In this document: in pieces, positions 3,508-64,000 of the stretch
Layout: every line of letters begins with the position of its first letter
How positions within the stretch are numbered: position 1 is the first letter of the stretch
Sequence record: PQ631072.1
Source of the DNA: Escherichia phage EC.P2
Reading direction: 5' to 3' (one strand)
DNA length: 64,000 bases
Program-made: the position numbers and the translations under genes
The notes under the pieces: model-generated
The model's input: the letters and a program-made list of their open reading frames with translations, nothing else
What the model was told of the DNA's origin: nothing
Database searches by the model: none

Positions 3508-3681
3508 ATGAGAAACTATGTAGCTAAACACGATTTCAATAGGGCTTCTTATCACAGAGATAAGAAGAACAGTTATTCGCGTAAATGGGATCTGGAGGAA
3601 GAGTTAGATTATGATTACAGAAGAACAATGGAAGGAGATTTTGGAGAATGCACAACCGATGGTAGTGAAGAAGATAGTTAA
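3508..3681 (+). CDS. hypothetical small acidic protein (57 aa; below ORF-track cutoff)
   Basis: ATG 3508 preceded by AGGAGGA at 3494-3500; open frame to TAA 3679-3681. Confidence 0.45.
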   Translation: MRNYVAKHDFNRASYHRDKKNSYSRKWDLEEELDYDYRRTMEGDFGECTTDGSEEDS

Positions 3682-3716
3682 TAATTCACCAAGTCTCCCT
3701 AAAGTAAAATTTAAAG

Positions 3717-19458: not shown

Positions 19459-19469
19459 GGAGAAAATTT

Positions 19470-19889: not shown

Positions 19890-19905
19890 TAAAAGGAGTT
19901 TTTAA

Positions 19906-20916: not shown

Positions 20917-20918
20917 AA

Positions 20919-21656: not shown

Positions 21657-21659
21657 CAG

Positions 21660-22295
21660 ATGGGAATACCATTTGATTTAAAACTTGATGGTTCTAACGA
21701 TTTAGTAATGGTGGATGGTGATTTAACACTAACCACAACTAAAAGTGAAATTGCAGCACAGACGCTTGGAATAACACTTAGAACTTTCCGTGGAGAATGG
21801 TTCCTCAATTCTAATTTTGGGGTTCCATATCTGCAAGAGATTATTGGTGTTGCCAAGAAGAAAGAGATTGTTGATCGCATTTTCTTATCAACTATCGCAA
21901 GTAATGTTTATATAGATAATATCAATTCCTATACATCCTCTTATGATAGAGATGATAGGTATTACTCAATGAACGTTACTGTTACAGTTGGTGAACAAGT
22001 TGTTAGTGCACTGTTCAGTACGCAGCCGTCTGAAGAATATATCTATCCAGAAGCTGGTGATGATAATGCAGCAATCACTTGTGAAGCATTTGAAATTGTT
22101 GAATCTGCAAATAGACTCTATCGCTTTATTAACATTGTTGGTCTTCCGAAAGATACTTATTCTACTTGGTGGAATGAGTGGTCTAACGAGGCATTGCTTG
22201 AAAAATACCTTGTTAACGAAGCCAATAAAGGTCTTGCAACCAATTACAACTATGCTATAACAGCAACAATGGGAGCTACAAATAATAATGGCTGA
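21660..22295 (+). CDS. baseplate wedge protein (gp25/GPW-like)
   Basis: N-terminal region with the characteristic ...TLRTFRGEW...FGVPYLQE... pattern of GPW/gp25 family proteins. Confidence 0.6.
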   Translation: MGIPFDLKLDGSNDLVMVDGDLTLTTTKSEIAAQTLGITLRTFRGEWFLNSNFGVPYLQEIIGVAKKKEIVDRIFLSTIASNVYIDNINSYTSSYDRDDRYYSMNVTVTVGEQVVSALFSTQPSEEYIYPEAGDDNAAITCEAFEIVESANRLYRFINIVGLPKDTYSTWWNEWSNEALLEKYLVNEANKGLATNYNYAITATMGATNNNG

Positions 22296-25637: not shown

Positions 25638-25645
25638 GGAAAATA

Positions 25646-49832: not shown

Positions 49833-50102
49833 CTAAAATGATTCGTTTGTCTCCATAATATATTGCATTTCCAAATCTTCCATATGTTTCTTAAATTGGT
49901 AAACAATTTCCGATGGGGAAATATCTATATCAAAAAGTTCTTTTGTACCAGAATAGAACCTAATACCATCAACAATAAGGCCACCATAATAATCCCAATC
50001 ACTTTCTCGTGAGAAAGGATTAGGTTCTTCATAATAGTAATCTACTTCAACAATAATAGGTTCTTTATTATCTTGTTTATACTCAAAATCAAAAGTGTTC
50101 AT
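49833..50102 (-). CDS. hypothetical protein (89 aa)
   Basis: ORF whose stop overlaps the upstream gene's start codon. Confidence 0.4.
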   Translation of the reverse strand: MNTFDFEYKQDNKEPIIVEVDYYYEEPNPFSRESDWDYYGGLIVDGIRFYSGTKELFDIDISPSEIVYQFKKHMEDLEMQYIMETNESF

Positions 50103-51046
50103 TATAAATCCTCGATAAGCAGTCTGCGGGTTTCATTTAAATCATCAATATTGTAGTTATCTCTTACATACTTAGCAAGAGCTAATCCTTTCTCAATACA
50201 AACATCAGGAGATTCGATTAAGTATTCTACAACATCTTTCCACTCTTTAACTGAATCAGCAAAGAAGATTAGATCTTTAAATTCTTCAGTATAGTAGTTC
50301 TCTCGTGGAGAACAAACGAGTGGCAAACCTTTAGCACCAGCCTCAAGAATTTTTAAATTACTTTTGGCATTATTAAAATGATTATTTACTAATGGAGCTA
50401 TGGAGATTTGATGACCATCGTATGCCTCCATATAACACTCATAAGGACGAATACCTTCATAAACACAATCTGGTTGAATCTCTTCTTTAATTTGCAACCA
50501 TTGAGCACTACTTAACTCTTCGTGATCTCTACGAAATCCACATAACGTTAAATCTTTACCAAAAGTAGGAAGAATTGCTAAATCATGTTTATGTGTTTCA
50601 CTTCCCGCCCAAACCAGTGGGCTTTTAGAATAACGATCTTTAGTAAGAACAAACTGCCCTTCATCAAAAGGTAGTCCGTTAGGCACAATATGTACATTAT
50701 CATTGTATTGGCTTAATTCAACCTTTAATGCTGGAGTTGTTGTAGTTACAAGATCGCTTCTTTCAAGGAACCATTTTAGGTCATCTCGGATTTGATTTTC
50801 AAATAATCCTTCCAACATATGCCCTTCAGGAATAATTAAAGAATCATCCAGATCCATTACCAATTTAAACCCAAGTTGTTTAAGAGCCAGGAAACCTGGC
50901 TTTCCACGAGTTGGTACTCCATTGAACACAAAAATATTATGCTTAGGATTAATGGTCAGTTTGCGTTTATATGGCAAAATGATTCTATGAAAATCACATA
51001 CACTATACCTTTCATGTCCACGTGTGTCAAGAATAATATTAGGCAT
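50102..51046 (-). CDS. glycosyltransferase, GT-B fold (GT4-like), paralog 1
   Basis: Motifs ...VHIVPNGLPFDEGQF... and ...KILEAGAKGLPLVCSP... match the GT4 NGVD and E-x7-E/PVIA signatures; paralogous to 51058 ORF. Confidence 0.55.
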   Translation of the reverse strand: MPNIILDTRGHERYSVCDFHRIILPYKRKLTINPKHNIFVFNGVPTRGKPGFLALKQLGFKLVMDLDDSLIIPEGHMLEGLFENQIRDDLKWFLERSDLVTTTTPALKVELSQYNDNVHIVPNGLPFDEGQFVLTKDRYSKSPLVWAGSETHKHDLAILPTFGKDLTLCGFRRDHEELSSAQWLQIKEEIQPDCVYEGIRPYECYMEAYDGHQISIAPLVNNHFNNAKSNLKILEAGAKGLPLVCSPRENYYTEEFKDLIFFADSVKEWKDVVEYLIESPDVCIEKGLALAKYVRDNYNIDDLNETRRLLIEDL

Positions 51047-51057
51047 ATGGCTCCTTG

Positions 51058-52032
51058 TTAAAGACTTTCAATAACTTGACGACGCAGTTCATTGGCATCT
51101 GCAAGATTATAATTAAGACGAACGTGTTCTGCAAGCATCATACCACGATCTTCTGTGTATCTAGGGTTCCTCATTAGCTTGACAACTTCATAATGCCAAG
51201 ATGCTTTAGAATCTGCATAGATAACAGCCTTTGCATCTACCGGATTGAAGTACGGCAGCACAGGAGAACAGATAATAGGAAGACCCTTTGCACCTGCTTC
51301 CAAAATCTTCAAATTGCTTTTACAGTTGTTGAAGTCATTATCTACCAGAGGAGCAATTGCAATACTGTGACCGTCATACACAGACATATACTCACCTAAA
51401 TTTTTAATAGCTGGTTTATACTGTGCATTTGGAATTTTACGTTTTACTTTAACCCACTCCGCAGTAGTTAGATACTGACTATTATTTCCAACAGGTGCAG
51501 AAGGATACACTTCATACCCTGCAATTGTCAATAGTGTATCATCAAATGTATTAGCTACAAGAGATAAATCAGGTTCATGGCTTGCTCCTCCAGCCCAAAT
51601 AATAGGCGTGTCAGAATAACGGTCTTTTGTCAAAGTAAATTGACCTTCATCGTAAGGTAGTGCGTTTCTAATAACGACAACATTACGATTTAAATGACGA
51701 ATTTTGTAAGCCAGGTATTCTGTTGTTACAGTAACAACATCTGCTAACTTAATCATCTCTACAATAGTCTTTGAGTGATTAGTAAATACGCCAGCCATAT
51801 AATGTTCAGGATTAAGCGAATAAAAGTCATCTAAATCAACAATAATCTTAACACCTTGTGCCTTCAGGCGTTTAACTTCGTCTGATCCACGAGAATACAC
51901 TCTATTAAAAACTAAAACGTCTTTCTTAGGCTTAAACGTATTTCCCGCAAATGGCATTACAATACGATGGTAATCACAACCACTGCCTAACTTATTATCA
52001 CACTTAAGTACAGGGGTATTAGGATTTACCAT
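51058..52032 (-). CDS. glycosyltransferase, GT-B fold (GT4-like), paralog 2
   Basis: ADVVTVTTEYL...VVVIRNALPYDEGQF...KILEAGAKGLPIICSP; start moved to the Met that aligns with the paralog's N-terminus. Confidence 0.55.
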   Translation of the reverse strand: MVNPNTPVLKCDNKLGSGCDYHRIVMPFAGNTFKPKKDVLVFNRVYSRGSDEVKRLKAQGVKIIVDLDDFYSLNPEHYMAGVFTNHSKTIVEMIKLADVVTVTTEYLAYKIRHLNRNVVVIRNALPYDEGQFTLTKDRYSDTPIIWAGGASHEPDLSLVANTFDDTLLTIAGYEVYPSAPVGNNSQYLTTAEWVKVKRKIPNAQYKPAIKNLGEYMSVYDGHSIAIAPLVDNDFNNCKSNLKILEAGAKGLPIICSPVLPYFNPVDAKAVIYADSKASWHYEVVKLMRNPRYTEDRGMMLAEHVRLNYNLADANELRRQVIESL

Positions 52033-52705
52033 ATTTTTGAGCCTCCTCATAAGAGATAAAAGTTTTACCATTGCGAAGATCCTCCAGTGATTGTTTATAT
52101 TGTTCCCAGTTTACACCAATCCCCTGTTCTTTCTCTTCTTTTGACAGATTTGCAAAAGGTAAAGGATTATCTCCAAACACATCGTCAGGATGGATAAACG
52201 CCATAATTCGAATAGGGCATGGTACGCCGTGAATACCTCGGTTCAAACCTGCTAGTGGAACACGCTGAATCCACTCTGCATCTTCATATCCATAACCGTG
52301 GGTGTATGAGCGGAAATAGCCAGCTTTCTCAATAACTGCACGGGAATACATACCAAACTGGCACATACCTAGTTCCCAAATAACCACTTCACCTTCAATA
52401 CCTTTTACTTTATCTTTAAAATATTCAGGCATACCAAAGAAATCCCAGCCATTTTCCTTAGCCTGTTTTACAAAATATGTTTCCCAACCTGGCACAACCG
52501 GATAGCAATCATCATCAAAAATAAACCAGTAATCATACCCTTCATCATAAAACTTTTTCATCAGTTCATTACGGGCATATGCAACACCTTTTCGTTCCCG
52601 ATCATACTGTACAACAAAAGTAGCATTAGGATCAGTCACAAGATAATCTTTAAGAGGACGCTTACCTACAGTAATAACACCAACACCAATTTTTGTATTT
52701 TCCAA
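52019..52705 (-). CDS. glycosyltransferase, GT-A fold (GT2-like)
   Basis: TTG start; DxD-type motif FDDDCY and YGYEDAEW motif. Confidence 0.5.
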   Translation of the reverse strand: MENTKIGVGVITVGKRPLKDYLVTDPNATFVVQYDRERKGVAYARNELMKKFYDEGYDYWFIFDDDCYPVVPGWETYFVKQAKENGWDFFGMPEYFKDKVKGIEGEVVIWELGMCQFGMYSRAVIEKAGYFRSYTHGYGYEDAEWIQRVPLAGLNRGIHGVPCPIRIMAFIHPDDVFGDNPLPFANLSKEEKEQGIGVNWEQYKQSLEDLRNGKTFISYEEAQKYGKS

Positions 52706-52714
52706 AATAACTCC

Positions 52715-53278
52715 TTAAATAATTTTATTCATGTCTTGACAATGTAAAAGGTGTGAAACAGCTTTTCTAGGATCATCACTACCTAAACGGTATGTGTGAA
52801 ATAAATATAGCCCACGTAATAAACCTAGCCTTTTATTGTTAGCGTGTAATGCTTTAGAGAAAATTATATCAAACTGTATTGATCTTTCCTCAAAAGGGAT
52901 TTCATTCCACAGACTCTTACGAAAGAGAAGAAAGAATCCTGCTAAGATAGCATCTGTAGGTACTTCCTCTATTGAGTTTCCCCATTCTAGATGTGCTCTT
53001 TTTGCAATCTCAATGTGGTGTAATATATTTGGATCTTCACTTCTTTCATTATTAAATAATTGATATGTTGATCCCAATCTATTACAAGATGCACCAAGAA
53101 CATCAAAATCAGGATTTGAACGGACTATTGATTCCAACCAAGCAGGTTGTTCTGGAAGAAGAAACATTGTATCAATGTCTCTTAGGCAAATCCAACTATC
53201 TTCTGGTAAGACACTTATTGTGTCATTGATACCTTTTCCAATATCTCCAGAAAGATAGGGAGTTATGTGAAATATCAT
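52715..53278 (-). CDS. glycosyltransferase-like protein (putative)
   Basis: Weak GT-A-like features (DID acidic motif); adjacent to three glycosyltransferases. Confidence 0.3.
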   Translation of the reverse strand: MIFHITPYLSGDIGKGINDTISVLPEDSWICLRDIDTMFLLPEQPAWLESIVRSNPDFDVLGASCNRLGSTYQLFNNERSEDPNILHHIEIAKRAHLEWGNSIEEVPTDAILAGFFLLFRKSLWNEIPFEERSIQFDIIFSKALHANNKRLGLLRGLYLFHTYRLGSDDPRKAVSHLLHCQDMNKII

Positions 53279-53738: not shown

Positions 53739-54016
53739 CAGTGTAACACTCCCAGTATGTTGTTTTGTGACATAACCATAGAACATTCAACATTATCGTG
53801 ACTACGTGAAAAACGTTCCCAAACATCTTCATCGACTCGTAAAGCTATACAAGGATAGACGTTATCATTGATCATTTCAATTGAATAAACATCCACATTG
53901 TCTTCGTCTTCGATGAACATCATTGCAAACTGTTCTAAATGTTTCCTAATGTAATGTACATCCTCTTCTGTAAGACCAATAACAAGATAACTTGCAACGA
54001 TAACGCCATCTTTCAT
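53738..54016 (-). CDS. hypothetical protein (92 aa)
   Basis: ORF in track. Confidence 0.4.
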   Translation of the reverse strand: MKDGVIVASYLVIGLTEEDVHYIRKHLEQFAMMFIEDEDNVDVYSIEMINDNVYPCIALRVDEDVWERFSRSHDNVECSMVMSQNNILGVLH

Positions 54017-54026
54017 CTATATCTCC

Positions 54027-54536
54027 TTAGCGATAGAATTGATGTTCTTTGTAGCGGTACACTAGAACCATATCTTTTTCCCAGTGTGCTCTTATTGTAG
54101 ATTTTTTAAAGTATAATGCTCCTTTTGTAATATCTAATGCAATTCGTAATTCTGGAAAATGGTTATCGAGATAAAGTAGACGTTCTGCTATAGCTTTAGC
54201 GTCTTTCCACTTATCGTGTTCCATAACGTTGAATGTCTTCGTGTAAGAGAATTGTCCTTTTTGAAACAAAACTTCTTTTATAGTATCAGGGAAATATGAA
54301 TCTCTCGCCCTATTCAATACTACATTACCAACAGCAGACATACCGCGCTTTCCTTGATTACGACTTTCTGCATAGATTGCACAAGCTAATAGATTTTCTT
54401 TACTATCACGCTTTGTACACTTGTGAACTACTTTAGCAGTTTTTACGTTTGCAGCTTCGGCTTGCGCCACAACAGGTGTAAATGTAAAAGCAGTTAAGGA
54501 TAGTAACGCAATTGCGACAAAGGTTTTTATTGACAA
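54027..54536 (-). CDS. secreted cell-wall hydrolase, SleB/CwlJ (Hydrolase_2) family
   Basis: N-terminal signal peptide (cleavage near AQA/EA); LLACAIYAESRNQ...GNVVLNRA...QFSY matches Hydrolase_2 signature; TTG start with AGGAGG RBS. Confidence 0.7.
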   Translation of the reverse strand: MSIKTFVAIALLSLTAFTFTPVVAQAEAANVKTAKVVHKCTKRDSKENLLACAIYAESRNQGKRGMSAVGNVVLNRARDSYFPDTIKEVLFQKGQFSYTKTFNVMEHDKWKDAKAIAERLLYLDNHFPELRIALDITKGALYFKKSTIRAHWEKDMVLVYRYKEHQFYR

Positions 54537-54598
54537 ACTTGCCTCCTATTTTGTTAAACGAACTTTTATTGTAACACAGAAGAGGCTATTTTGCAAGT

Positions 54599-54620
54599 GG
54601 AGGGGGATAATCCCCCTCTT
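54599..54620 (-). terminator. hairpin terminator
   Basis: GGAGGGGGA-TAA-TCCCCCTC hairpin just downstream of the 54629 ORF stop. Confidence 0.45.
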
Positions 54621-54628
54621 ACACTCTG

Positions 54629-55231
54629 TTAGATATTGTAAACCTTTGTATGAGTTACTACACCATCTTCTACAAAATCAATACGTTCTTGATCCGTAAC
54701 TAGTGCAGACAACACTTTAAATTTAATTTTTACACGTTCAAAAGCTGGTTGACCATCTTTAAGATAATTATGTTCAGTTGTCACTGTCTTGTTTACAAAA
54801 TCAACTTTTGCTTTACCGTTCTCGCGTAAGTGGAATGTTTTTCCTGCTTTATACACAATTTCAACATTACCTTCGAGAGTAATTCCTTCAAAAAGTTCAC
54901 CCTCTTCTTCATTTTCTTCACTTTTGAACAGACGACGAAACTCTTCCATATCAAGATAAACAACATCTTCAGAATAACTATCAGTAAGATATGTCTTACC
55001 CTCCATTAACCCGAAATATTGCCAGATTGCCGAATAAACATCACTAGATGATCCAAGGGTTTCTCTGAGTTTAGTTCCACGGATTACTTCATAAACTTCA
55101 AAATTGAAACCAGACTGCAAAGCATCAAACAGCACATCACTAACTTCTAAAGCATAATCTTCATTGTTGTCAATATCTACAAGAAAATTACCGCTACGAA
55201 TAAGTTTTTGACCTTCTAAAGTAATACTCAT
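54629..55231 (-). CDS. hypothetical acidic protein (200 aa)
   Basis: ORF with AGGAG RBS downstream of TerD terminator. Confidence 0.45.
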   Translation of the reverse strand: MSITLEGQKLIRSGNFLVDIDNNEDYALEVSDVLFDALQSGFNFEVYEVIRGTKLRETLGSSSDVYSAIWQYFGLMEGKTYLTDSYSEDVVYLDMEEFRRLFKSEENEEEGELFEGITLEGNVEIVYKAGKTFHLRENGKAKVDFVNKTVTTEHNYLKDGQPAFERVKIKFKVLSALVTDQERIDFVEDGVVTHTKVYNI

Positions 55232-55257
55232 TGTTTTCTCCTCTTTTATTTCAAATA

Positions 55258-55273
55258 TGCGCCCCGAAGGGCG
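55258..55273 (-). terminator. hairpin terminator after terD-like gene
   Basis: GCGCC-CCGAAG-GGCGC hairpin. Confidence 0.45.
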
Positions 55274-55295
55274 CTATGATTTATTACTTGATGTA

Positions 55296-55892
55296 TTACT
55301 CGAACCAATCGTCGCCAGCGCCAAACGCTTTAACTACATCGTAAATGTCAAGCCCAGCTTTACCTACACCATATGCTTTCAGTTTCCATTCGCTATCTTC
55401 TCGCACCAGGGAGGCAACGTGGCAAATGGTGTTACCTGCAAGTTCTGGAGCCAAGAAGTCAAAGTCCAGCAGTTCAACATTACGTTCATCATCGAAGATT
55501 TTAAGGAAACCTTCGGTAGCGTGACCAAGGCGTTTCTTACCCGTTTCGTCATCAATAGTAATTACGAATGCAATTTCCTGTGCTTCAGCAGAGATATTAT
55601 CCAGTGTAACATCAATCTGCTCCATCTGTCCTACACCATCACGAACATCTTCACCTGCAAAAGTAGAACGTTCAGGATCAAATTTCTGTGCGTAGCACAC
55701 CAGGTGACGAGGAGACAACAGTTCCGGCAGACCAGATGCATTGTGTCGGCAAATCAGAGCACTAACATCCAGATCCAGTTTTTCGTTAGATTTCCAAGAG
55801 AATTCCAGACGAATGCGTTTCAGTGCTGGTGCGATCTTTTTCAGAGAAACTTTTTCGCTAGAACCTTTTTTCAGGGAAATTTTCTGAGTCAT
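55296..55892 (-). CDS. terD: TerD-family protein (tellurite-resistance/stress-response TerD domain)
   Basis: ISLKKG...VSLKK, LDLDVSAL, AFVITIDDE, and C-terminal SEWKLKAYGVGKAGL segments follow the conserved TerD domain blocks. Confidence 0.65.
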   Translation of the reverse strand: MTQKISLKKGSSEKVSLKKIAPALKRIRLEFSWKSNEKLDLDVSALICRHNASGLPELLSPRHLVCYAQKFDPERSTFAGEDVRDGVGQMEQIDVTLDNISAEAQEIAFVITIDDETGKKRLGHATEGFLKIFDDERNVELLDFDFLAPELAGNTICHVASLVREDSEWKLKAYGVGKAGLDIYDVVKAFGAGDDWFE

Positions 55893-55965
55893 AATTTATT
55901 ATCTCCTTTGTTGTTAATTTACGTTGTCTATTTTACTAATCTTTTCTACAAAGTCAAGCGTTTTT

Positions 55966-56760
55966 TTACGCTTTTGCTCCGAATTTTTTAACCCACTCAC
56001 CAAACTCTTCAGATAACAATTTATCGTAAAGTTCTTCATCAGACAAGGACAAATCTGCAATACCGATAAAATCAACATTATCGTACTCTTTTGCCAAGTC
56101 TTTCAGGAATTTAAAGTTTGCATTACCTACACCAACCATAAACCAGTAAACAGGCGTATTGCGGTGTTTGTTCAGTAAGCTACGTACTGCTGAAGTATCC
56201 ATGTTTTCCCCGTCAGTTTGGAAGAAAATCATTGCAGGAGTACGATCAACTTGTGCATCAGTGTCTACAACCTGTTCTACAACAGTACGTGTTACTTCTA
56301 CAAGTTCTTTTTTACCAGTTAGTTTAGCAAGGAAACCCTTAGCTGGGACTTCTTCATACTCAACGACTTCGCGTGTAATATTTTTCATAGGTACACTACC
56401 GAAGTATGTATCATAGATCTCCTGCATTACTGGAGCATAAGCAGTACCACCATTGATGCAAACATTAGACATGCAAGAGCCGACATAATCATCATACACA
56501 TCAGCCGTTGCAGGAGGCAGTTCAAAAGAAGAACTATTGAAAGCCCACATGTCAATCTGTGCATTGTCATCAAACTTCATACCAAACGGCAGCAGTTTAC
56601 CTACAAAATCACTAACAGTGCCATCACGATACAGCTCACACATACTACCCGAAATATCTAAGGCGCTACCGACACGAAGAACAACATCGTTAATCTTTTT
56701 CTTACGCAGAGATACAGTAAGAGTTTCTTGACGTTTTTTAAGACTGATTTTATTGGACAT
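55966..56760 (-). CDS. vWA-domain protein (TerF/TerY-like)
   Basis: MIDAS-type motif LDISGSM in first 40 residues; adjacent to terD-like gene. Confidence 0.55.
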   Translation of the reverse strand: MSNKISLKKRQETLTVSLRKKKINDVVLRVGSALDISGSMCELYRDGTVSDFVGKLLPFGMKFDDNAQIDMWAFNSSSFELPPATADVYDDYVGSCMSNVCINGGTAYAPVMQEIYDTYFGSVPMKNITREVVEYEEVPAKGFLAKLTGKKELVEVTRTVVEQVVDTDAQVDRTPAMIFFQTDGENMDTSAVRSLLNKHRNTPVYWFMVGVGNANFKFLKDLAKEYDNVDFIGIADLSLSDEELYDKLLSEEFGEWVKKFGAKA

Positions 56761-56761
56761 A

Positions 56762-57031
56762 TTATTTCTCCTTTCTGAGTGTAATGTTAGTAACTTCTAA
56801 ATCCACTTCTACCATTTCTGTATCATATGAAATACAGCTAAGTTGACCTCTTTGTGAACCGTTCAGACACATTGCTTGGTTTGTATTAACTTTAATAAAC
56901 ACTAAGTTTCTGAACGTATCTAAACCAGAATCTTGATACGCAACATAATATACGAATGTATCACCTGCGTCAAGTTCTCCAAAACATTTAGGTTCATCTG
57001 ATTTATCGTCTTTGATATTAAATTTAAGCAC
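56762..57031 (-). CDS. hypothetical protein (89 aa)
   Basis: ORF in track, tightly coupled to neighbours. Confidence 0.4.
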   Translation of the reverse strand: MLKFNIKDDKSDEPKCFGELDAGDTFVYYVAYQDSGLDTFRNLVFIKVNTNQAMCLNGSQRGQLSCISYDTEMVEVDLEVTNITLRKEK

Positions 57032-57587
57032 TGTCTTCTCCTTTACCTGCCCTCCAGCCTAAATAGAAAGCCTCTCTGGTGATCTTTTGCAACTCGTTTA
57101 AAGAGATAGTTACAACTAAATTATCTTCAATTTCTAGCTTTGAGTCTTCTTCTGTCTCAATGCAAGTATTATGCACTTTGTGGTAAGGATTGTCAACACG
57201 TTTAAATTTATTATTTTCAGTGCTGAAGAAGCAATCTGGATCTTCTTCTCCATCACCCCAACCCTGGTTAGGGTCTTCTTCAGATCTTTCTGTTGGGATC
57301 TCACCTGTAAAGTGCTCTTCTAATACCATAGCGATACCATCTCCAAGATCGGAAGAGAACATCAAATTACAAACTTCTTCCCAAGGCATAGACCACTTAA
57401 ATCTTTTACGATTACCATGTTTATCTTCTTCGTTAGAGAAAACACTACCATAGCTATCATAATTGCCATACATCTCTTCAACAACTTTACCACCTTTCAA
57501 AAGAAATAGGTAGCAAGGAGAACCATCGAAAGAGGTAGAAAGAGCAGCATTGCCAGACTCTTTGCACAAGAAACTAAAACACCCCAT
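57024..57587 (-). CDS. hypothetical acidic protein (187 aa)
   Basis: ORF in track. Confidence 0.4.
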   Translation of the reverse strand: MGCFSFLCKESGNAALSTSFDGSPCYLFLLKGGKVVEEMYGNYDSYGSVFSNEEDKHGNRKRFKWSMPWEEVCNLMFSSDLGDGIAMVLEEHFTGEIPTERSEEDPNQGWGDGEEDPDCFFSTENNKFKRVDNPYHKVHNTCIETEEDSKLEIEDNLVVTISLNELQKITREAFYLGWRAGKGEDSA

Positions 57588-57787
57588 TATACACCAGCCT
57601 TAAGATCAATTAAAGCCAAAGTTGTTTCAGAATGTGTTTGCTCGTCTACAGGTGCAGTCATATGATAATACAAAAAGTCTTCGGCATCATACCAATCTGA
57701 TTCTTGACCTTGTTTCCAACCATCAATGAAAGCATCCTCCATAATGGTTTGTAATTCTTCACGAGTTAAGTGAATATCTTTATTCAT
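57587..57787 (-). CDS. hypothetical small protein
   Basis: ORF in track, start/stop overlaps with neighbours. Confidence 0.35.
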   Translation of the reverse strand: MNKDIHLTREELQTIMEDAFIDGWKQGQESDWYDAEDFLYYHMTAPVDEQTHSETTLALIDLKAGV

Positions 57788-58020
57788 TACACATTCTCCT
57801 CTTTTACCAATTCCATCGTTGAACTATCAAAACCATCTTTAGAAGAATAGGTATAGACAGAACGTAGTTCTCGCAGGACAGTAAATACATTAGGATCATC
57901 TAACCAAGCATCCTGGAGGAGAACATAACGATCTTCATTGTCATACTGGACAGCAATCATAGAACCAGACAGTTTGTAAATTTTAATATTCATAATATAT
58001 TTCTCCTTAAAGTAGACCAC
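57787..58020 (-). CDS. hypothetical small protein
   Basis: ORF in track. Confidence 0.35.
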   Translation of the reverse strand: MVYFKEKYIMNIKIYKLSGSMIAVQYDNEDRYVLLQDAWLDDPNVFTVLRELRSVYTYSSKDGFDSSTMELVKEENV

Positions 58021-59110
58021 GTTTAACAGTTTGAATCATACCATCTTCAAGAGATTGCACTTCTTGAATGTAATCAATACGAGCAGCACGGGCTTCAGTG
58101 TTGATTCGGTTAGTTTCTTCCAACATTTTAACTAAGTTTTCTTGATCGCGACGTAATGTTTCAATATCCAATACTTGACGATTAGCAAGTTGCGTAGCTT
58201 CAATTTGGTTTTGTGCAGCCAGATCACTACCCATTGCAATAGCAGCATTAAATTCATTCAGTACATTGTTCTGTGTATCGGCTGCTTTCTTCTGGCGTAG
58301 ACTTTCAATATACATAGAAAAGTTTGCAGAGTAAGCAGGAATAACATTATTCACAATATTACGGGCTGATCGCATCAAACTTGCAGATACTTTCTGCATA
58401 CTTTGTACACGTGGCCCCATCTGAACACACAGTAAACGCAAGGCTTTCAGGTCTGCAATACGAATTTCAAGCAGATCCATAGTATCACGAGTACGTTGAC
58501 GCTCTTCTACTTCATTTTCAGGTAGTGTATTAAGGCGAACTTCTTCTTTTTCATAAGTAGCTGTTAGAAGCTCTATATCCCTGTTTAAGCTAAGAGCATA
58601 TTTTGCAATAGCCTCTTCTAAACGTTGCAGATATCGTAAAGAATCTTCTTCTTTTTTCAAGTCTGTTTGGAGTGTCTTTACCAAACCTTCAATACGATTA
58701 TTGATGGTGTCAAATTCACCAAACAAATCTTCTTTCATACCTAATACTTTCTTAACTAGTTTACCTAAGCCTTTAGATTGTTTAATAGAATTAGGATCAA
58801 GTTGCTTTGCTTGCTTAATAAGTGCAGTTAAACGCTCACTCATTTCATCTCCCTGAGATGAACGCTGGTGTTTAAGCACTTCCGCATTAAGGTTACGAAG
58901 AGTAAGTCCTGCATCAGCACCAACCTGTTCAATCTCTTCACGAGACATTGGAGGCAGCATTTGTACAGGTCGTGCAACAGCAGGGGCATATACAGGGCTT
59001 GCATCCATAGCAGTTGGAGCAAACAAAGACTTACTTTTTTCTGTTGTTGCCGTGAATACACTCATTTCAGACGGTTTGCTTTTTACGGCACTGATAAAAG
59101 GACTGGACAT
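58007..59110 (-). CDS. TelA-like (toxic anion resistance family) protein, tentative
   Basis: 367-aa mostly helical, charged protein between the vWA/TerD and TerC genes; family assigned from context and size, not from a verified motif. Confidence 0.35.
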   Translation of the reverse strand: MSSPFISAVKSKPSEMSVFTATTEKSKSLFAPTAMDASPVYAPAVARPVQMLPPMSREEIEQVGADAGLTLRNLNAEVLKHQRSSQGDEMSERLTALIKQAKQLDPNSIKQSKGLGKLVKKVLGMKEDLFGEFDTINNRIEGLVKTLQTDLKKEEDSLRYLQRLEEAIAKYALSLNRDIELLTATYEKEEVRLNTLPENEVEERQRTRDTMDLLEIRIADLKALRLLCVQMGPRVQSMQKVSASLMRSARNIVNNVIPAYSANFSMYIESLRQKKAADTQNNVLNEFNAAIAMGSDLAAQNQIEATQLANRQVLDIETLRRDQENLVKMLEETNRINTEARAARIDYIQEVQSLEDGMIQTVKRGLL

Positions 59111-59178
59111 TCAATTTCCTCCATATTCTTTAGTAGATGGTGATACCTCTGTACCACCATCATAACACAAATTAAGTA

Positions 59179-60030
59179 TTAAACAAACATATCTAAATAA
59201 TTTGTAGTAATAAATGCTCCATCTGCTTCCAGATTAACATAACCAGTAGCATTAGTGGTTAAGAAATCCAGATCGAAGGACTCTTTAACACCCCGTACCT
59301 CAACACGAGAGATATCGAATACAGGTAGTGTAACAGCCTCTTCGTGCAATACCGTACCTTTGTAGGTTGCCTTAATGATAAACTTGATATTACCCGTTCC
59401 CGCATCATACAAAACACTTTCAAAGCCTTTGAGAGTATACTTATCACCAGAGGTGAAGTGCAAAGTTGCTTTGTTTACAGTACGTTTTTTACGAGGAGTT
59501 CCTTTCACACGTTTATGATCACTACGTTTTTTGTATTTAGGAATGAATACAAACGATACACTCTCAAGAAAAGTATCAACATCAAGGATTTTAATATCCT
59601 CTGTTGCAGCAAATTTTGAAGTCGTTGCATCAAAATGCTTTGCTCTGCGATCATACATAAAGATATCAAACCGATCTTCTAAATCAAACAAATTGTGTAT
59701 CTTAATTTCAGAATGCTTGCACATTGCAGCAACCTTAAACTCTTCAAAACGTGGGTGTTCTACAAGCTCTTCAAGTTTTACACCAAAGACAGTATATTGT
59801 TTCGAAGTTTTTTCTGGCGTTGGCATTACAGAAGCATAATCACCGATTGCGCTTTTAAAGCAAAATTGTTCTTGACCTGTATTTTTACCAACGAATTTAC
59901 AGTATTCGTCATCGTGCATACTTTCTTTGGTAGTACCAACAAACTCAAAACCATCTTTATTCTTCTCAAGAATTTCTTGATTAAAGATCCAACCTTCCAG
60001 GCGATACACTTTACCAACTTCTAGTTTCAT
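59179..60030 (-). CDS. hypothetical protein (283 aa)
   Basis: ORF in track. Confidence 0.45.
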   Translation of the reverse strand: MKLEVGKVYRLEGWIFNQEILEKNKDGFEFVGTTKESMHDDEYCKFVGKNTGQEQFCFKSAIGDYASVMPTPEKTSKQYTVFGVKLEELVEHPRFEEFKVAAMCKHSEIKIHNLFDLEDRFDIFMYDRRAKHFDATTSKFAATEDIKILDVDTFLESVSFVFIPKYKKRSDHKRVKGTPRKKRTVNKATLHFTSGDKYTLKGFESVLYDAGTGNIKFIIKATYKGTVLHEEAVTLPVFDISRVEVRGVKESFDLDFLTTNATGYVNLEADGAFITTNYLDMFV

Positions 60031-60065
60031 CTGTTTCTCCTTCTTATTTAATCTGTATTAAATTA

Positions 60066-60656
60066 TTAACGACGACGTGAGCTACTAAAACTACGTTTCG
60101 ACGAAGAATAACTTTTCGAAGACTTACTATAAGAGCTAATAGGGCTTGAGTAAGACTTACGAGCAGAGTAATTACTATTCACTTTTGTTGTTGATGGGCG
60201 TGAATACGTTTGTACACTTTGCTGCTTAATTGTGTTTTGTTTAGTGGTTGTATATGTATTCCCTTGTTTATCATAAAAACTATGCTTTTGTGTTGTATAT
60301 GCTTTACTATTAGTTGTAGGAGCAGCGTTGTTATTGATAATTGTTGTATTGCTACCGCCATCTCTATAACCACCACCGCCACTATTACCACTCAACATAT
60401 GACCAAGAAGCATACCTGTAGCAAATTCACCTACACCAGAAGAACCACTGCCGCCTCCTTGCACAACAACTGTTGAAGGTTGTGCAGGTGCTGCTTGAAC
60501 AACTTGAGGTGCAGGTTGATTTACATATTGTTCATCTACCATCTGATTTGGTGTTTGTTGGTAACGTTGGTTTTGTACATTTTCAGAATCATCACAACCT
60601 ACCAGCAATGCACTACCTAATACAACTGCAACAATAAAAGATTTAATGTTTTTCAT
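60066..60656 (-). CDS. lipoprotein, Gly-rich with Ser/Tyr/Lys-rich C-terminus
   Basis: Start set at Met with GAGAGGG RBS; signal peptide with lipobox LVGC. Confidence 0.5.
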   Translation of the reverse strand: MKNIKSFIVAVVLGSALLVGCDDSENVQNQRYQQTPNQMVDEQYVNQPAPQVVQAAPAQPSTVVVQGGGSGSSGVGEFATGMLLGHMLSGNSGGGGYRDGGSNTTIINNNAAPTTNSKAYTTQKHSFYDKQGNTYTTTKQNTIKQQSVQTYSRPSTTKVNSNYSARKSYSSPISSYSKSSKSYSSSKRSFSSSRRR

Positions 60657-60849
60657 TTGTAACCCTCTCATTTAAAGTCTCAACACAATTTTTAAAATCT
60701 CTAGAGAAACAATACATCTGTTCTCCGTTCCTGTTGATAGTAATTGTATGGTTATCAACATATGTTGTCAAGATAAAAATCAAACAAAATAACCCTAAAG
60801 CAAAACAAATATTTTCAAACAGAATCCAAAGAACACGTAAAACCACCAT
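60643..60849 (-). CDS. small membrane protein (tentative)
   Basis: 68-aa ORF with one hydrophobic helix. Confidence 0.3.
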   Translation of the reverse strand: MVVLRVLWILFENICFALGLFCLIFILTTYVDNHTITINRNGEQMYCFSRDFKNCVETLNERVTNEKH

Positions 60850-60864
60850 CAGATCACCTCAACA

Positions 60865-60882
60865 AAGCCCCCGAAGGGGCTT
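60865..60882 (-). terminator. hairpin terminator after terC-like gene
   Basis: Minus-sense AAGCCCC-TTCG-GGGGCTT, identical to plus hairpin at 38764. Confidence 0.5.
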
Positions 60883-60888
60883 AATGAA

Positions 60889-61866
60889 TTAAGCAACAGT
60901 CTGGTCTTCTTTTTCAGGGAAGATTAAACTTGCAATAACACCCAGCCCCAGAGTACCTAACACAATATACATACTGATCGTCGGATCAATGTGTGCTGGC
61001 AGGAAACTCACTTTTGCGTGCAGAGTTTCTGCAAACGGGTGATACATCAGTTTTACACCCACAAATACCAGGACTACGATAACTGCTTTCTCCAGATGAA
61101 CCAAATATTTCAGTGCAACACTAAGGACAAAGAACAGAGCACGTAGACCTAAAATTGCACACAGCATTGAAGAAAATACAAGCAGAGGTTCTTGTGTCAC
61201 TGCAATTACTGCTGGAACAGAGTCTACTGCAAAGATTACGTCAACCATTTCCATTACAAACACACAAACCAATGCAGGAGTTGCTACACGAACACCATTT
61301 TTGATTGTGAAGAACTTCTCACCATCCATCTGATCAGATACAGGGAACAGCTTACGAACAATGCGAGTAGCCCAGTGTTTAGAGTAATCAACTTCTGCGT
61401 CATTATCTCCAGCGAATACCATTTTAGCTGCGCAGAAAAGGATGACCGCACCGAAGAAGATATTAACATACCAGCCCAAACTCAACAAGTAAGTACCTAC
61501 TGCTACAAACACACCTCGGAAGACAATCGCACCTGCAATACCCCAAAGTAGAATCTTGTGCTGCAAGTGTGTGCTTTTAATACCAAAACTTGCGAATACT
61601 GCCACAAATACTACTAAGTTATCTACAGAAAGAGATTTCTCCAACACATACCCACTCAAGAACAAGCTCGCAAAATCAGCACCGTGTTGGAAGTATACAA
61701 AACCATAGTAGGCTAATGATACCCCAATCCAGAAAATTGACCAGCCAATTGCAGATTTAAATGAAATTTCTTTGTTTTCTCTGTGTCCAAAGAAATCAAT
61801 ACAAATCGACAAGACTAAAATACCCACTAAAACAACCACATCAATAATTGGGAAACCCAGTTGCAT
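60889..61866 (-). CDS. terC: TerC-family integral membrane protein
   Basis: Multiple TM helices; LEKSLSVDNLVVFVAVF matches the TerC signature, with a second DSVPAV repeat. Confidence 0.65.
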   Translation of the reverse strand: MQLGFPIIDVVVLVGILVLSICIDFFGHRENKEISFKSAIGWSIFWIGVSLAYYGFVYFQHGADFASLFLSGYVLEKSLSVDNLVVFVAVFASFGIKSTHLQHKILLWGIAGAIVFRGVFVAVGTYLLSLGWYVNIFFGAVILFCAAKMVFAGDNDAEVDYSKHWATRIVRKLFPVSDQMDGEKFFTIKNGVRVATPALVCVFVMEMVDVIFAVDSVPAVIAVTQEPLLVFSSMLCAILGLRALFFVLSVALKYLVHLEKAVIVVLVFVGVKLMYHPFAETLHAKVSFLPAHIDPTISMYIVLGTLGLGVIASLIFPEKEDQTVA

Positions 61867-61943
61867 TCTTTTCTCCTCTTTAATGCGGAGGACAATCCTC
61901 CGCTCTATGTCGTATACTATAAACTGTTTTTAAAGAAAGTCAA

Positions 61944-62192
61944 CTAGTTCAGTTCTGTAATTTTAAGTTTATCTTCTTTGTTAATGATAGGGAAAGCTAC
62001 AGCATCACCTACATCATCAATAAAGCAAACAGCAAGACCACCTTCCACTTTGCTAACCTGACCATTAAAGGCGTGATACGGGGCAGGAACAATATCTCCA
62101 TCTTCAAGGAGAATAGCCTCATAAACCTTACCAACAGTACAATCACGAGTGTTTATAAATTTTTCAAGCACTTCAACATTTACTTTACGCAT
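61944..62192 (-). CDS. hypothetical protein (82 aa)
   Basis: ORF in track. Confidence 0.4.
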   Translation of the reverse strand: MRKVNVEVLEKFINTRDCTVGKVYEAILLEDGDIVPAPYHAFNGQVSKVEGGLAVCFIDDVGDAVAFPIINKEDKLKITELN

Positions 62193-62206
62193 ATAAAGAT
62201 CCTCTC

Positions 62207-62413
62207 TTATTTGTTAGATTGAAAGATACCACGAAGTACCGCAAGAATGAACGTCACACAGACTACACTCCAAAACGTTACAGGAACATGATGCCAGTCT
62301 AAGCCGATAATGTCAATCATATAGTTGTATGCTAAAAGCAGTAGCCAACTAGGGATTAACACAATCAAGAACACAACAATAAAACAACCTAATACTGCTA
62401 AAACACCTGCCAT
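62207..62413 (-). CDS. small membrane protein
   Basis: 68 aa, two hydrophobic segments. Confidence 0.4.
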   Translation of the reverse strand: MAGVLAVLGCFIVVFLIVLIPSWLLLLAYNYMIDIIGLDWHHVPVTFWSVVCVTFILAVLRGIFQSNK

Positions 62414-62422
62414 ACTTTCTCC

Positions 62423-63139
62423 TTATTTCAGTTTGTAAACAATTACATTTAAACCTTTGTTCACTAGAGTTTCTTCGATCATAAGTTTTACAATATTCCA
62501 AGAACCTCCAGCCAAACCACAACCAAGCATTGGTAAACCTACAATTTTACCGCCTGAAGATACAACATCGTCTCCCATACTATCTAACGCATTGTAGATA
62601 GCTTCATAATTCAGGTCACGCTTACCTTCCTCACGACGACTATAACCATATTGTCCATATAAATTATAAATTGTCAAATTGTTTTCTGTATACTTAGTAA
62701 ACGTACCTAATTTTTTATAATCACCACGTTTAGTGGCACAATCTGCTTTAAACGCACCAGGCCACTTGCTTTTAATTTTTGGTGCAATACCACTACCCAT
62801 AGTGCAAAAACAGTTACAGCAGTGTGCTATAGCGTCTATATCGCCTCTCTCTGCTGCTGCTAAAAGATCACCGTATACCTCAATGATACCTGGTGGATAA
62901 CTTGTTACAATCTCATCTTCCCAGTACATTTGCTCTACACCACCGATCAGTGCAAAGTTTTGTGTGATGCGATCATCAATATAATTAAGACCTGAAACAT
63001 ACACAGCATATTCATCCTGTGCTGTAATGCCTTGTACACGAATTCTTAAGACACCATCTTTATCTGTTGCTACACGCCCAAAATCTTTTTCTGTAATATT
63101 GGTGATAGGATCTCCGAAAGTCGTCACTTTATTAGACAT
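62423..63139 (-). CDS. macro-domain protein (ADP-ribose binding/processing family)
   Basis: DAIAHCCNCFCTMGSGIA and GLPMLGCGLAGGSW resemble the two conserved macro-domain blocks; start set at internal Met with GGGG RBS. Confidence 0.5.
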   Translation of the reverse strand: MSNKVTTFGDPITNITEKDFGRVATDKDGVLRIRVQGITAQDEYAVYVSGLNYIDDRITQNFALIGGVEQMYWEDEIVTSYPPGIIEVYGDLLAAAERGDIDAIAHCCNCFCTMGSGIAPKIKSKWPGAFKADCATKRGDYKKLGTFTKYTENNLTIYNLYGQYGYSRREEGKRDLNYEAIYNALDSMGDDVVSSGGKIVGLPMLGCGLAGGSWNIVKLMIEETLVNKGLNVIVYKLK

Positions 63140-63989
63140 AATAATCCCCTTTAACATTAGATTTGTTGATAATGTTGCTTTCAAAAAATTGACGCAGGAA
63201 ATCAAAGTTCTCTTTGTATTTTTCAATATTATTGTAACCTTCTGCAAGGCAACCAAAGAACAGTTGTTCTACATAATACAAAGGAAGTTGTGAAAGTGCA
63301 ATTTTAAAATCAACTTCGCTTTGACTCATTAGATACTTAATAGGACGAACCAAACATTTAGCATCAGTTTCTTGCTTAATCATTTTAATAAAAGCTGCCA
63401 GGTTATTGATATAGTTGAAGTTAAGTGCAGCTTCGGTGTTGGCTTCTGTACCTTCATACTTTGCAAAGTACAGGAAAAACGTATCGTTTTCAACACCTTC
63501 TTTGTCTAAAATTTCAATAAGTTTTTCTTCGTGTGTTCCTGTAATATTAACATCATCAATGAAAATCAGAGTTTTATTACCCCAGAAATCACGATTGATA
63601 GAGAAAGTGTCACCATCGATCAAAGCCTTACGATCTTCTTTGCTAAGAAATCCATAATCATTGATATAACTCACTTTACGATGAACGATATCCCACTCTA
63701 CTGCTTTACCTCCTTTGATAGAGATTAGGTAGTTGAGGTGATCTACAAAATGTTCAGATAACACTGTAGCTGCATTTTTCACATAGTTATATGGAGATGG
63801 AATAACAACAAAACTTTCATTTACTAGTCGTTCTTCATATTTAGAAAAGAAACTTTCAGCTAGAATGCGTCCCATTCTTTTTGCTGCCTGGTTACTACCA
63901 AACTTTAGTTTGGAATAATCTGCAATGTTAAATTTTGCTTCCTTCAGGTTAGTAAAAGTATTAGCAAAATGTTGAATTTGATTACGCAT
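63132..63989 (-). CDS. phosphoribosyltransferase-fold protein (type I PRTase/PRPP-binding motif); 5' end may lie beyond window
   Basis: PRPP-binding loop KTLIFIDDVNITGTHE; frame remains open to window edge upstream of the first Met. Confidence 0.5.
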   Translation of the reverse strand: MRNQIQHFANTFTNLKEAKFNIADYSKLKFGSNQAAKRMGRILAESFFSKYEERLVNESFVVIPSPYNYVKNAATVLSEHFVDHLNYLISIKGGKAVEWDIVHRKVSYINDYGFLSKEDRKALIDGDTFSINRDFWGNKTLIFIDDVNITGTHEEKLIEILDKEGVENDTFFLYFAKYEGTEANTEAALNFNYINNLAAFIKMIKQETDAKCLVRPIKYLMSQSEVDFKIALSQLPLYYVEQLFFGCLAEGYNNIEKYKENFDFLRQFFESNIINKSNVKGDYYV

Positions 63990-64000
63990 TAATAAGTTCC

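Follow-up and report, generated by a model that had tools for sequence, protein, structure and literature searches.

Macrodomain and Ter-type phosphoribosyltransferase genes that abut in a phi92-like Escherichia coli phage probably belong to two separate systems

The biosynthetic unit of the Ter systems is reportedly, in the account given by Anantharaman, Iyer and Aravind in 2012, made up of a phosphoribosyltransferase (PRTase) and a HAD phosphoesterase, and the full bacterial module of the same account is said to contain in addition an ATP-grasp protein, a second PRTase and a TIM-barrel lyase. To our knowledge, the chemistry of the 'nucleoside-like metabolite' proposed at that time has remained uncharacterised since. 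Ter systems with both PRTase and HAD are known in phages (PMC7824862; PMC8386662), and in phage ME3 a minimal pair of the two has been reported (PMC7824862).

Macrodomain proteins of phages, for their part, have acquired published counter-defence roles in 2025-26. In the NARP1-AP operons, a macro gene lies between the genes of the PRPP-fold protein Adps and of Namat, and the Adpp protein of Vibrio phage Gary dephosphorylates ADPR-1''P (bioRxiv 10.64898/2026.01.28.702374). T4 Tk.4 is, by genetics, the anti-DarTG2 factor AdfM (bioRxiv 10.1101/2025.11.20.689424), and gp104 of PhiKZ is likewise an AdfM anti-DarT macrodomain (PMC13309987). SCO6735 is an ADP-ribosyl-thymidine DNA hydrolase in which H24, N27, Q85 and G126/G128 are essential (PMC9411070).

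Genes related to both groups meet at the right-hand edge of a 64,000-nucleotide stretch (the window) of Escherichia phage EC.P2 (PQ631072.1), a phi92-like E. coli myophage (Justusliebigvirus). A preliminary description had paired a macrodomain protein with a PRPP-loop protein here, and both open reading frames are indeed found on the minus strand at the positions it gave (Table 1), with profile matches far beyond chance and with the domains, macro (Pfam Macro) and PRTase (Pfam PF15610), to which they had been ascribed. The region is mostly ordinary, in that GenBank already carries annotations for both genes, macrodomain protein for the one and phosphoribosyltransferase for the other. What is established directly comprises the domain identities, the folds, the active-site motifs, the gene order with its conservation, and the neighbourhoods in relatives. 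Together these make it likely that two functionally separate phage systems abut at the window edge.

Table 1. Features at the right-hand end of the window (positions are those of the window)
Feature	Positions	Strand	Remarks
HAD-family phosphatase, 3' end (last 5 codons and stop)	63982..64000	-	218 aa in all; remainder beyond the window end
PRTase_3 (ComF-like type I phosphoribosyltransferase), 285 aa	63132..63989	-	C-terminal helical extension, residues ~197-279
Macro protein, 238 aa	62423..63139	-	best start is the ATG at 63139
N-terminal ~84-residue domain of macro protein, lineage-specific	62888..63139	-	no Pfam match; AF2 pLDDT <50
Macro domain, residues ~85-238; TARG1/SCO6735/Poa1p-like class, phage Tk.4/Adpp family (PHROG 335)	62426..62887	-	
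ORF of 68 aa, two hydrophobic helices, between macro gene and TerC	62207..62413	-	PHROG 16065, E=9e-42; annotated in relatives
ORF of 82 aa, no function assigned	61944..62192	-	PHROG 17459, E=2e-41; annotated in relatives
TerC-family integral membrane protein	60889..61866	-	Pfam TerC, E=1.2e-38
201-aa protein in Ter cluster, signal peptide and lipobox (LLVGC), G/S-rich tail	60066..60671	-	PHROG 21570; no Pfam match
283-aa protein in Ter cluster	59179..60030	-	PHROG 27504, E=6e-200; no Pfam, NCBIfam or PADLOC match
TelA (toxic anion resistance protein family)	58007..59110	-	Pfam TelA, E=5.1e-34; PHROG 5890 'tellurite resistance'
vWA protein, TerF C-terminal type	55966..56760	-	Pfam vWA-TerF-like, E=7.5e-39 on orthologue L001:8967-9761
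TerD-domain protein	55296..55892	-	Pfam TerD, E=5.1e-28 on orthologue L001:8298-8894

The phosphoribosyltransferase and its HAD partner

The PRTase is matched by the Pfam family PF15610, PRTase_3 'ComF-like' (E=1.1e-41; 143.5 bits, cut-off 28.7), and by PHROG 13415 (E=7e-165). Its PRPP loop, FIDDVNITGTHE, is invariant in 43 homologues (D145, D146, T150, G151), and its fold is that of a type I PRTase, closest to ComF. The possibility that the protein is PRPP-synthetase-like, as had been suggested, falls away, since PF15610 is its sole Pfam match: neither a Prs-like architecture (Pribosyltran_N/Pribosyl_synth) nor a NAPRTase/Nampt domain was found in the ORF, which is accordingly neither Prs/Adps-like nor Nampt-like.

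Directly upstream of the PRTase_3 gene there is a HAD phosphatase gene in all 24 loci examined, a set that spans Stephanstirmvirinae, Xanthomonas, Rhizobium and Caulobacter phages, metagenomic phage contigs, rhizobial replicons and Bacteroidota, most of the sampled PRTase_3 homologues and loci lying on phage or phage-like contigs. In the present phage this HAD gene heads the tellurite-resistance-like (Ter) cluster. At the window edge, the HAD stop and the PRTase start overlap by 8 nt (ATGCGTAA, 63982..63989, the HAD stop TAA occupying 63982-63984), and the HAD CDS of the relative Bas62 (L001, 16980-17636) maps to window position 63982 onward. The HAD protein of the relative is matched by Pfam Hydrolase (E=4.8e-6) and by HAD-IA/nucleotidase-like models of NCBIfam, with a weak resemblance to pyrimidine nucleotidases. 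Beyond position 64000, Nampt-like, Nmnat-like or ATP-grasp genes had been named as ones to look for; in the relatives none is present, and the stretch is taken up by the HAD gene, two very small ORFs, an AAA ATPase and NrdG/NrdD.

The linkage of this pair to Ter genes is evident in phages and bacteria alike. The PRTase_3 domain occurs in 156 phage records and TerD in 147, with organism-name counts that closely parallel each other, and in one metagenomic phage contig the HAD-PRTase_3 pair is again linked to Ter genes. Moreover, three bacterial loci hold the pair inside canonical Ter clusters, namely a Tannerella MAG (three TerD, TerY-vWA, TerY_C, PP2C and a kinase), a Bacteroidetes MAG (TerD and TerC) and a Hymenobacter plasmid (three TerD, two VWA, PP2C and a kinase). 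There are no Ter genes near the pair in some phages and rhizobial replicons, and its role may therefore not depend on Ter. A plasmid search with the PRTase returned only rhizobial and Hymenobacter plasmids, with no BLAST-detectable homologue on enterobacterial Ter plasmids, and hence gives no evidence of capture of the PRTase from E. coli ter islands. No Ter or PRTase defence model of PADLOC was matched. The preliminary description had also mentioned, as its alternative, a ter-associated PRTase biosynthetic unit, and for the PRTase this alternative is the right one, given the invariable upstream HAD gene and the Ter genes in the window.

An ordinary nucleotide-salvage enzyme, which together with the HAD phosphatase would merely tune the nucleotide pools for phage DNA synthesis, might also be read into several of these features: the GenBank product name in several records is 'orotate phosphoribosyltransferase', NrdD/NrdG, of nucleotide metabolism, are encoded a few kb upstream in the relative's annotation, and there is the faint likeness of the HAD protein to pyrimidine nucleotidases. 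We regard this as highly improbable. The PRTase has no NCBIfam match at all, including none to a curated OPRT/PyrE model; against OPRT, HGPRT and UPRT structures its identity is only 8-17%, with TM values of 0.3-0.5; its C-terminal helical domain is family-specific; and it keeps company with Ter genes in both phages and bacteria. In addition, the synthesis of a monophosphate followed by its dephosphorylation would be futile for salvage.

The macrodomain protein and its relatives

The macro protein is recognised by Pfam Macro (E=2.4e-7; 31.1 bits, cut-off 22) and by PHROG 335 'phosphatase' (E=7e-65). In an AF2 model the macro part, residues 81-239, has pLDDT >90 (these residue numbers, and those of N110, Q164, G207 and G213 below, are higher by one than in the numbering from the ATG at 63139). 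A macro fold of the ALC1/TARG1-like class with an ADP-ribose cleft is borne out by Foldseek, in that the predicted macro part superposes on TARG1-ADP-ribose complexes with a target-normalised TM of 0.90; BT1257, DarG and SCO6735 are matched too. Sequence searches of the PDB with phmmer find SCO6735 (5e-15) and TARG1 (4e-10). The ligand-contact motifs AHCCN, YGQYG and GCGLAGG are intact, N110, Q164, G207 and G213 show no variation among 41 homologues, and the position of the catalytic Lys (TARG1 K84, DarG K80) is occupied by Gln.

The macro domain is found in 2,968 phage records, as against 156 for PRTase_3. The N-terminal domain of the macro protein occurs only in Justusliebigvirus (53 records) and in Citrobacter phage Tr1 (39%). 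In a Klebsiella phage, the counterpart of this domain makes up the N-terminus of another ORF, whose C-terminus is weakly MazG-like.

The relatives of the macro protein point towards NAD and ADP-ribose chemistry. It is 39-48% identical to the macro proteins whose genes are flanked by Adps and Namat in Vibrio phages River4 (gp177) and VPG01 (VPG01_031), River4 being of the same genus as Gary; a Pakpunavirus macro gene (44% identity of the product) adjoins Adps/Namat; and each of four metagenomic relatives (45-53% identity) is encoded in an NAD/ADPr gene island. By sequence, T4 Tk.4/AdfM is a more distant homologue than the macro proteins of the NAD-reconstitution operons, the BLASTP match to Tk.4 of the T4-type phage RB32 having E=5e-18 at about 30% identity (29-30%). 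The two relatives with tested activity share 30-48% identity with the macro protein, a level at which its substrate specificity is not assignable, and a literature search on Justusliebigvirus and DarTG found no experiment on the macro gene.

NARP1 (Adps and Namat) is seen only outside the window, in relatives 98-99% identical to the phage, which carry it ~62 kb from the macro gene, just to the left of the window start; in Bas62 and W22 the operon contains Adps and Namat with no macro gene. According to another notion, PRTase_3 and the macro protein form a module for rebuilding NAD or salvaging ADP-ribose, in which PRTase_3 would act on ADP-ribose in the manner of Adps or Namat, on substrate furnished by the macro protein. 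A precedent for such a pairing exists in the macro gene between Adps and Namat of the NARP1-AP operons, to whose macro proteins the phage macro protein is homologous; nonetheless, the notion appears barely tenable. Unlike PRTase_3, the Adps and Namat of the relatives do carry domains of the Prs-like and NAPRTase/Nampt kinds, and in tblastn searches they match only the NARP1 locus and not PRTase_3. The proposed role in counter-defence involving NAD or ADP-ribose fits the macro protein, in view of its relatives in or beside NAD-reconstitution operons, but with partners other than PRTase_3. An apparent second pairing of a PRTase with a macro gene came to light in a metagenomic NAD island, where a 177-aa Pribosyltran gene lies two genes upstream of a macro homologue; it has no similarity to PRTase_3, is a single case and was set aside.

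Two adjoining systems or one operon

The macro and PRTase genes had been put forward as one module. This is not supported, the constant partner of PRTase_3 being the HAD phosphatase: among the 24 loci, the macro gene adjoins PRTase_3 only in those of Stephanstirmvirinae type and never in the 19 others (0/19), which include the three bacterial Ter clusters. In XaC1 a macro gene lies 7.5 kb from PRTase_3, and the other loci have no macro gene within ±8 kb. The two genes probably represent, then, two different and already described phage systems.

Within the Stephanstirmvirinae, the picture could be a different one. A lineage-specific functional link of HAD, PRTase and macro protein is possible there, because the genes overlap by 8 nt (the PRTase stop and the macro start share ATGTCTAA, as the HAD and PRTase genes share their own overlap) and because the same order is kept in both genera despite divergence to 65% identity in the PRTase and 49% in the macro protein. 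Such a link would amount to a recruitment of the macro protein into the Ter pathway, with HAD, PRTase_3 and macro protein as a three-enzyme operon in which the last would bind or trim a ribosyl- or ADP-ribosyl-type intermediate or product. Translational-coupling overlaps at both junctions, an order of HAD, PRTase, macro and TerC that is maintained in Justusliebigvirus, Phapecoctavirus and Klebsiella/Citrobacter relatives, and an extra N-terminal domain that is met only in the HAD-PRTase-macro setting are all consistent with this. On balance it is unlikely: the macro gene is absent from beside the pair outside this subfamily, the motifs of the macro protein are those of the general phage family in NAD islands, and gene overlaps are usual in this densely packed phage, with many unrelated small ORFs sitting in the cluster as well. 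We hold it to be quite unlikely that the macro protein of phi92-like phages, with its unique N-terminal domain, has become a part of the Ter pathway and takes as its substrate a metabolite of ribosyl or ADP-ribosyl type that HAD-PRTase_3 produces. A scan of positions 54000-64000 for promoters and terminators gave counts equal to the shuffled expectation and is uninformative on operon boundaries.

Under the reading of two abutting systems, the enzymatic activities, the compounds acted on and the purpose that the Ter cluster serves in the phage are all inferred, as follows. HAD and PRTase_3 would constitute the minimal unit for biosynthesis of the 'nucleoside-like metabolite' of Ter systems. PRTase_3 would join a base or base-like acceptor to PRPP, forming a ribonucleoside 5'-monophosphate, from which the HAD phosphatase would strip the 5'-phosphate to leave the nucleoside. 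This product would presumably be sensed or used by the membrane-associated TerD, vWA-TerF, TelA and TerC proteins of the phage, which are encoded downstream, and, following a published proposal, may change the envelope of the infected cell, for example excluding superinfecting phages.

The macro protein, as a member of the widespread Tk.4/Adpp macrodomain family, would separately hydrolyse an ADP-ribose derivative as counter-defence. The prospects are about even that it is a trans-acting, Adpp-like ADPR-1''-phosphate phosphatase, which feeds Adps and Namat of NARP1 and defeats RES-type NAD phosphorylases. A more tentative assignment is that of an AdfM-like enzyme that removes the ADP-ribose placed by DarT2 on thymidine in phage DNA, and what likelihood is left falls to a protein with both activities or with another ADP-ribose substrate.

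Ter clusters in phages were known before, as were the counter-defence roles of the macro family. The Justusliebigviruses have a NARP1 without an in-operon phosphatase but with a close Adpp homologue elsewhere in the genome, such that they may resist RES-type NAD phosphorylases by means of a trans-acting enzyme; alternatively, the same enzyme may protect against DarTG2. HAD-PRTase_3, moreover, is a strictly conserved pair, and in the phi92-like phages, which are genetically tractable E. coli phages of the BASEL collection, the chemistry of the Ter metabolite could be worked out directly. Were the macro protein part of the Ter pathway after all, this would connect the 'nucleoside-like metabolite' with the chemistry of ADP-ribose and with the way in which the phage controls the envelope of its host.

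Comparison with the described systems

The locus resembles the Ter biosynthetic unit in having a PF15610 PRTase with an intact PRPP loop and a type I fold, an adjacent HAD gene, and linkage to TerD, TerC, TelA and vWA-TerF. It differs from the full Ter module in being a minimal pair only, the relatives having within ±10 kb neither an ATP-grasp gene nor a TIM-barrel lyase nor another PRTase, and from the bacterial Ter unit in that the relatives of the phage PRTase are mostly phage-borne.

With regard to DarG, the macro protein has no DarT-binding C-terminal domain, and its matches to DarG models (E~1e-13) cover the macro part only, that is positions 4-147 of 338 in NCBIfam (48.9 bits against a 250-bit cut-off) and 6-144 of 329 in PADLOC; no darT neighbour of the macro gene is present among the ORFs of the window or in the relative's annotation. 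Closer is the likeness to AdfM and SCO6735, the latter being the best sequence match in the PDB; the macro protein keeps the equivalents of the H, N, Q and G that SCO6735 requires, and that of K34 is Ser. The Gln that replaces the Lys of DarG and TARG1 is common to the macro protein, SCO6735, Tk.4 and the macro proteins in the Adpp position.

With Adpp, finally, the macro protein shares the motifs of the macro proteins encoded between Adps and Namat, and relatives of the phage carry both of those genes. In its loops, GCGLAGG resembles the macro proteins in the Adpp position, whereas TMGSG is Tk.4-like and stands in place of their RMGRG. The differences are an extra N-terminal domain and the location of the gene, which lies beside PRTase_3 and at a distance of ~62 kb from NARP1, rather than within two genes of Adps/Namat.

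The PRTase, its HAD partner and the Ter context

Over its final 7 kb, where the minus strand carries all the genes, the window shares 99% identity with phi92-like E. coli myophages (Justusliebigvirus, Stephanstirmvirinae), including W22, pEC-M2929-1AR.1 and the BASEL phage JohannJBalmer/Bas62. Along the direction of transcription, these relatives carry NrdD, NrdG, AAA ATPase, two tiny ORFs, HAD hydrolase, PRTase, macro protein, two small ORFs, TerC, a small ORF, a 201-aa lipoprotein-like ORF, a 283-aa ORF, TelA, several small ORFs, a vWA-TerF-like protein and TerD. Of the HAD gene, the window includes just 19 nt at the 3' end, such that the genes from NrdD to HAD are what relatives carry beyond position 64000; the partner genes that the preliminary description had predicted there are absent. 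Its recognition of a macro-domain ORF beside a PRPP-loop PRTase ORF at 62423-63989 is borne out by Pfam matches to Macro (E=2.4e-7) and to PF15610, 'PRTase ComF-like' (E=1.1e-41), and by a PRPP loop (DDVxITGTH) that is invariant across 43 homologues. Both genes are already annotated in public records. The PRTase matches no NCBIfam model, and therefore its GenBank label, 'orotate PRTase', is unsupported.

PRTase_3 (PF15610) loci were drawn from annotated phages, metagenomic contigs, 100,000 scanned species genomes, and plasmids. In all 24, tblastn with the phage's own proteins as queries finds a HAD gene as the immediate upstream neighbour of PRTase_3; the HAD/PRTase start/stop overlap, read directly from the sequence, is ATGCGTAA. 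A macro domain adjoins PRTase_3 only in the five Stephanstirmvirinae-type loci, lies 7.5 kb from it in Xanthomonas phage XaC1 and was not found by tblastn within ±8 kb in the remainder. In Bacteroidota, moreover, the HAD-PRTase_3 pair is located within textbook Ter clusters: a Tannerella MAG has TerDx3, TerY-vWA, TerY_C, PP2C, kinase, HAD, PRTase_3 and P-type ATPase, a second MAG has TerD, HAD, PRTase_3, OmpA and TerC, and on a Hymenobacter plasmid TerDx3, VWAx2, PP2C, kinase and DUF475 are divergent from the pair. So, of the two readings first offered, the ter-associated unit is correct for the PRTase, whose true partner is the HAD and not, as had been supposed, the macro protein. Judging from the two enzyme families, the PRTase would convert a base and PRPP into a nucleotide, from which the HAD would release the nucleoside.

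Among phage records, TerD (n=147) and PRTase_3 (n=156) have closely parallel counts by organism name, Rhizobium phages being the exception, with HAD-PRTase_3 and no BLAST-detectable TerD. Rhizobial pairs (38-42% identity; loci L015-L026 of Rhizobium, Sinorhizobium and Ensifer) occur on plasmids, for example pRL10 (L023), and on chromosomes, and tblastn detects no Ter genes within ±8 kb of them. Therefore, the pair is present outside Ter contexts too. Such PRTase and HAD Ter systems have already been described in jumbo 'and certain other related smaller tailed phages', possibly with a role in competition with superinfecting phages (Iyer et al. 2021, PMC7824862), and the same gene set was remarked on in a Klebsiella phage paper (PMC8386662). 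The phi92-like phages offer a tractable system for the Ter metabolite.

The macro protein and its adjacency to the PRTase

By sequence and fold, the macro protein (best read as 238 aa) is placed in the TARG1/SCO6735/Poa1p-like group. Residues ~85-238 are predicted with pLDDT >90, and the modelled domain superposes on TARG1-ADP-ribose, BT1257, DarG and SCO6735; DarG models match the protein over their macro part only. Gln stands at the position of the catalytic Lys of TARG1 and DarG, and equivalents of SCO6735 His24, Asn27, Gln85 and Gly126/128 are kept, of which N27, Q85 and G128 are needed for ADP-ribosyl-thymidine cleavage (PMC9411070). The N-terminal ~84 residues, for which no usable structure model was obtained, are confined to Justusliebigvirus, apart from a match at 39% in Citrobacter phage Tr1. 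In Klebsiella phage phi1_175008 a homologous N-domain heads a separate 187-aa ORF, inserted between the PRTase_3 and macro genes and weakly MazG-like at its C-terminus (E=0.065), an arrangement that suggests a domain shuffled between two enzymes of nucleotide processing.

A lineage-specific functional link between macro protein and PRTase would account for the 8-nt overlaps at the gene junctions (PRTase/macro start/stop overlap, read directly: ATGTCTAA) and for the order HAD-PRTase-macro-TerC retained in both genera of Stephanstirmvirinae. Such a link is nonetheless improbable, since the association is absent from every other locus sampled, bacterial Ter clusters included, the macro motifs are identical to those of homologues in NAD islands, and many phages without PRTase_3 have a macro gene. 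The macro domain, contained in 2,968 of 50,697 phage records, T4-type tk.4 included, ranks among the accessory genes that large phages carry most commonly.

Neighbouring features

The ORF antisense to TerD matches no family and is unannotated in relatives, and so is probably spurious. The 201-aa ORF has matches in PHROGs only and no family matches elsewhere. Relatives name the glycosyltransferase-like ORFs 'disaccharide synthase' or glycosyltransferases, and a dTDP-rhamnose pathway is encoded in the genome as well; these ORFs may serve sugar modification of DNA or surface. Five GenBank records labelled 'Campylobacter phage' (MG065639, MG065645, MG065656, MG065689, MG065650) are yet 98.8-100% identical here to E. 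coli Justusliebigvirus/Phapecoctavirus genomes, and their host label looks doubtful.

Coordinates of features in the window and in extracted loci of relatives
Feature	Sequence	Coordinates	Strand	Remarks
14-tRNA cluster	window	222-2592	+	Ser x2, Lys, Tyr, Asn, Thr, Gly, Gln, Pro, Phe, Leu, Met x2, Ile
Four consecutive glycosyltransferase-like ORFs	window	50102-53278		one with weak TET-associated glycosyltransferase (TAGT) match, E=7e-5
244-aa ORF	window	55257-55991	+	antisense to TerD gene
201-aa ORF	window	60066-60671		inside Ter cluster; signal peptide and lipobox (LLVGC); long Gly/Ser/Thr-rich low-complexity tail
Macro protein	window	62423-63139	-	
PRTase	window	63132-63989	-	
187-aa ORF	phi1_175008 (L004)	9847-10410		
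UvrD/Rep helicase	Bas62 (L001)	23826-26600		intein-containing (record annotation); beyond window, few kb upstream of cluster
NARP1	relative (L033)	19255-21953		
NARP1	relative (L042)	1029-3727		
NADAR protein	Bas62 (L032)	10043-10594		
Sirtuin	Bas62 (L032)	35890-36702		

NAD and ADP-ribose genes, and comparison with Adpp and AdfM

The NAD-reconstitution pair NARP1 of relatives consists of an Adps-like Prs homologue and a Namat-like NAPRTase, which in Bas62 and W22 form an operon without a macro gene. It stands directly upstream of the tRNA genes with which the window begins, at 1-3.6 kb to the left of position 1 (window start aligned to Bas62) and ~62 kb from the macro gene. Applied to the macro protein, the idea of NAD/ADP-ribose chemistry is plausible, with its partners placed elsewhere in the genome than had been proposed. 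That the macro-PRTase pair itself constitutes an NAD module is scarcely credible, given that close relatives of EC.P2 already carry a real NARP1 and that PRTase_3, considered as a Prs-like or Nampt-like enzyme, resembles neither. Bas62 also encodes a NADAR protein (AdfN/anti-DarTG1 family; Pfam E=3e-36) and a sirtuin, and therefore this phage type carries a broad ADP-ribose/NAD toolkit, dispersed around the genome.

That the macro protein has an Adpp-like role in trans, or an AdfM-like one, is a testable prediction. T4 Tk.4 is an AdfM, needed by T4 to resist DarTG2 (bioRxiv 10.1101/2025.11.20.689424), and PhiKZ has an AdfM more DarG-like than Tk.4 (PMC13309987). Tk.4 is 30% identical to the macro protein (E=5e-18), in which the loop residues are mixed between Adpp-type and AdfM-type homologues, and an AdfM-like function is a tentative, rather unlikely assignment. 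The Adpp of Vibrio phage Gary, also a macro protein, converts ADPR-1''-phosphate to ADPR, a step that lets NARP1 rebuild NAD after attack by a RES-domain NAD phosphorylase (bioRxiv 10.64898/2026.01.28.702374). An Adpp-like role in trans, which has about an even chance of being right, is favoured over the AdfM-like one because the macros are closer to homologues that are flanked by Adps/Namat or lie in NAD islands, and because close relatives carry Adps and Namat. A Pakpunavirus homologue (44% identity) adjoins Adps/Namat, and all four metagenomic homologues (45-53% identity) are within islands with Nampt, Nudix-Nmnat, NADAR, SIR2 and a Prs-like gene. The macros of Stephanstirmvirinae resemble the Adpp type more than the AdfM type, being 39-48% identical to those located, in the Adpp position, between Adps and Namat in VPG01 and in River4, which is of the same genus as Gary.
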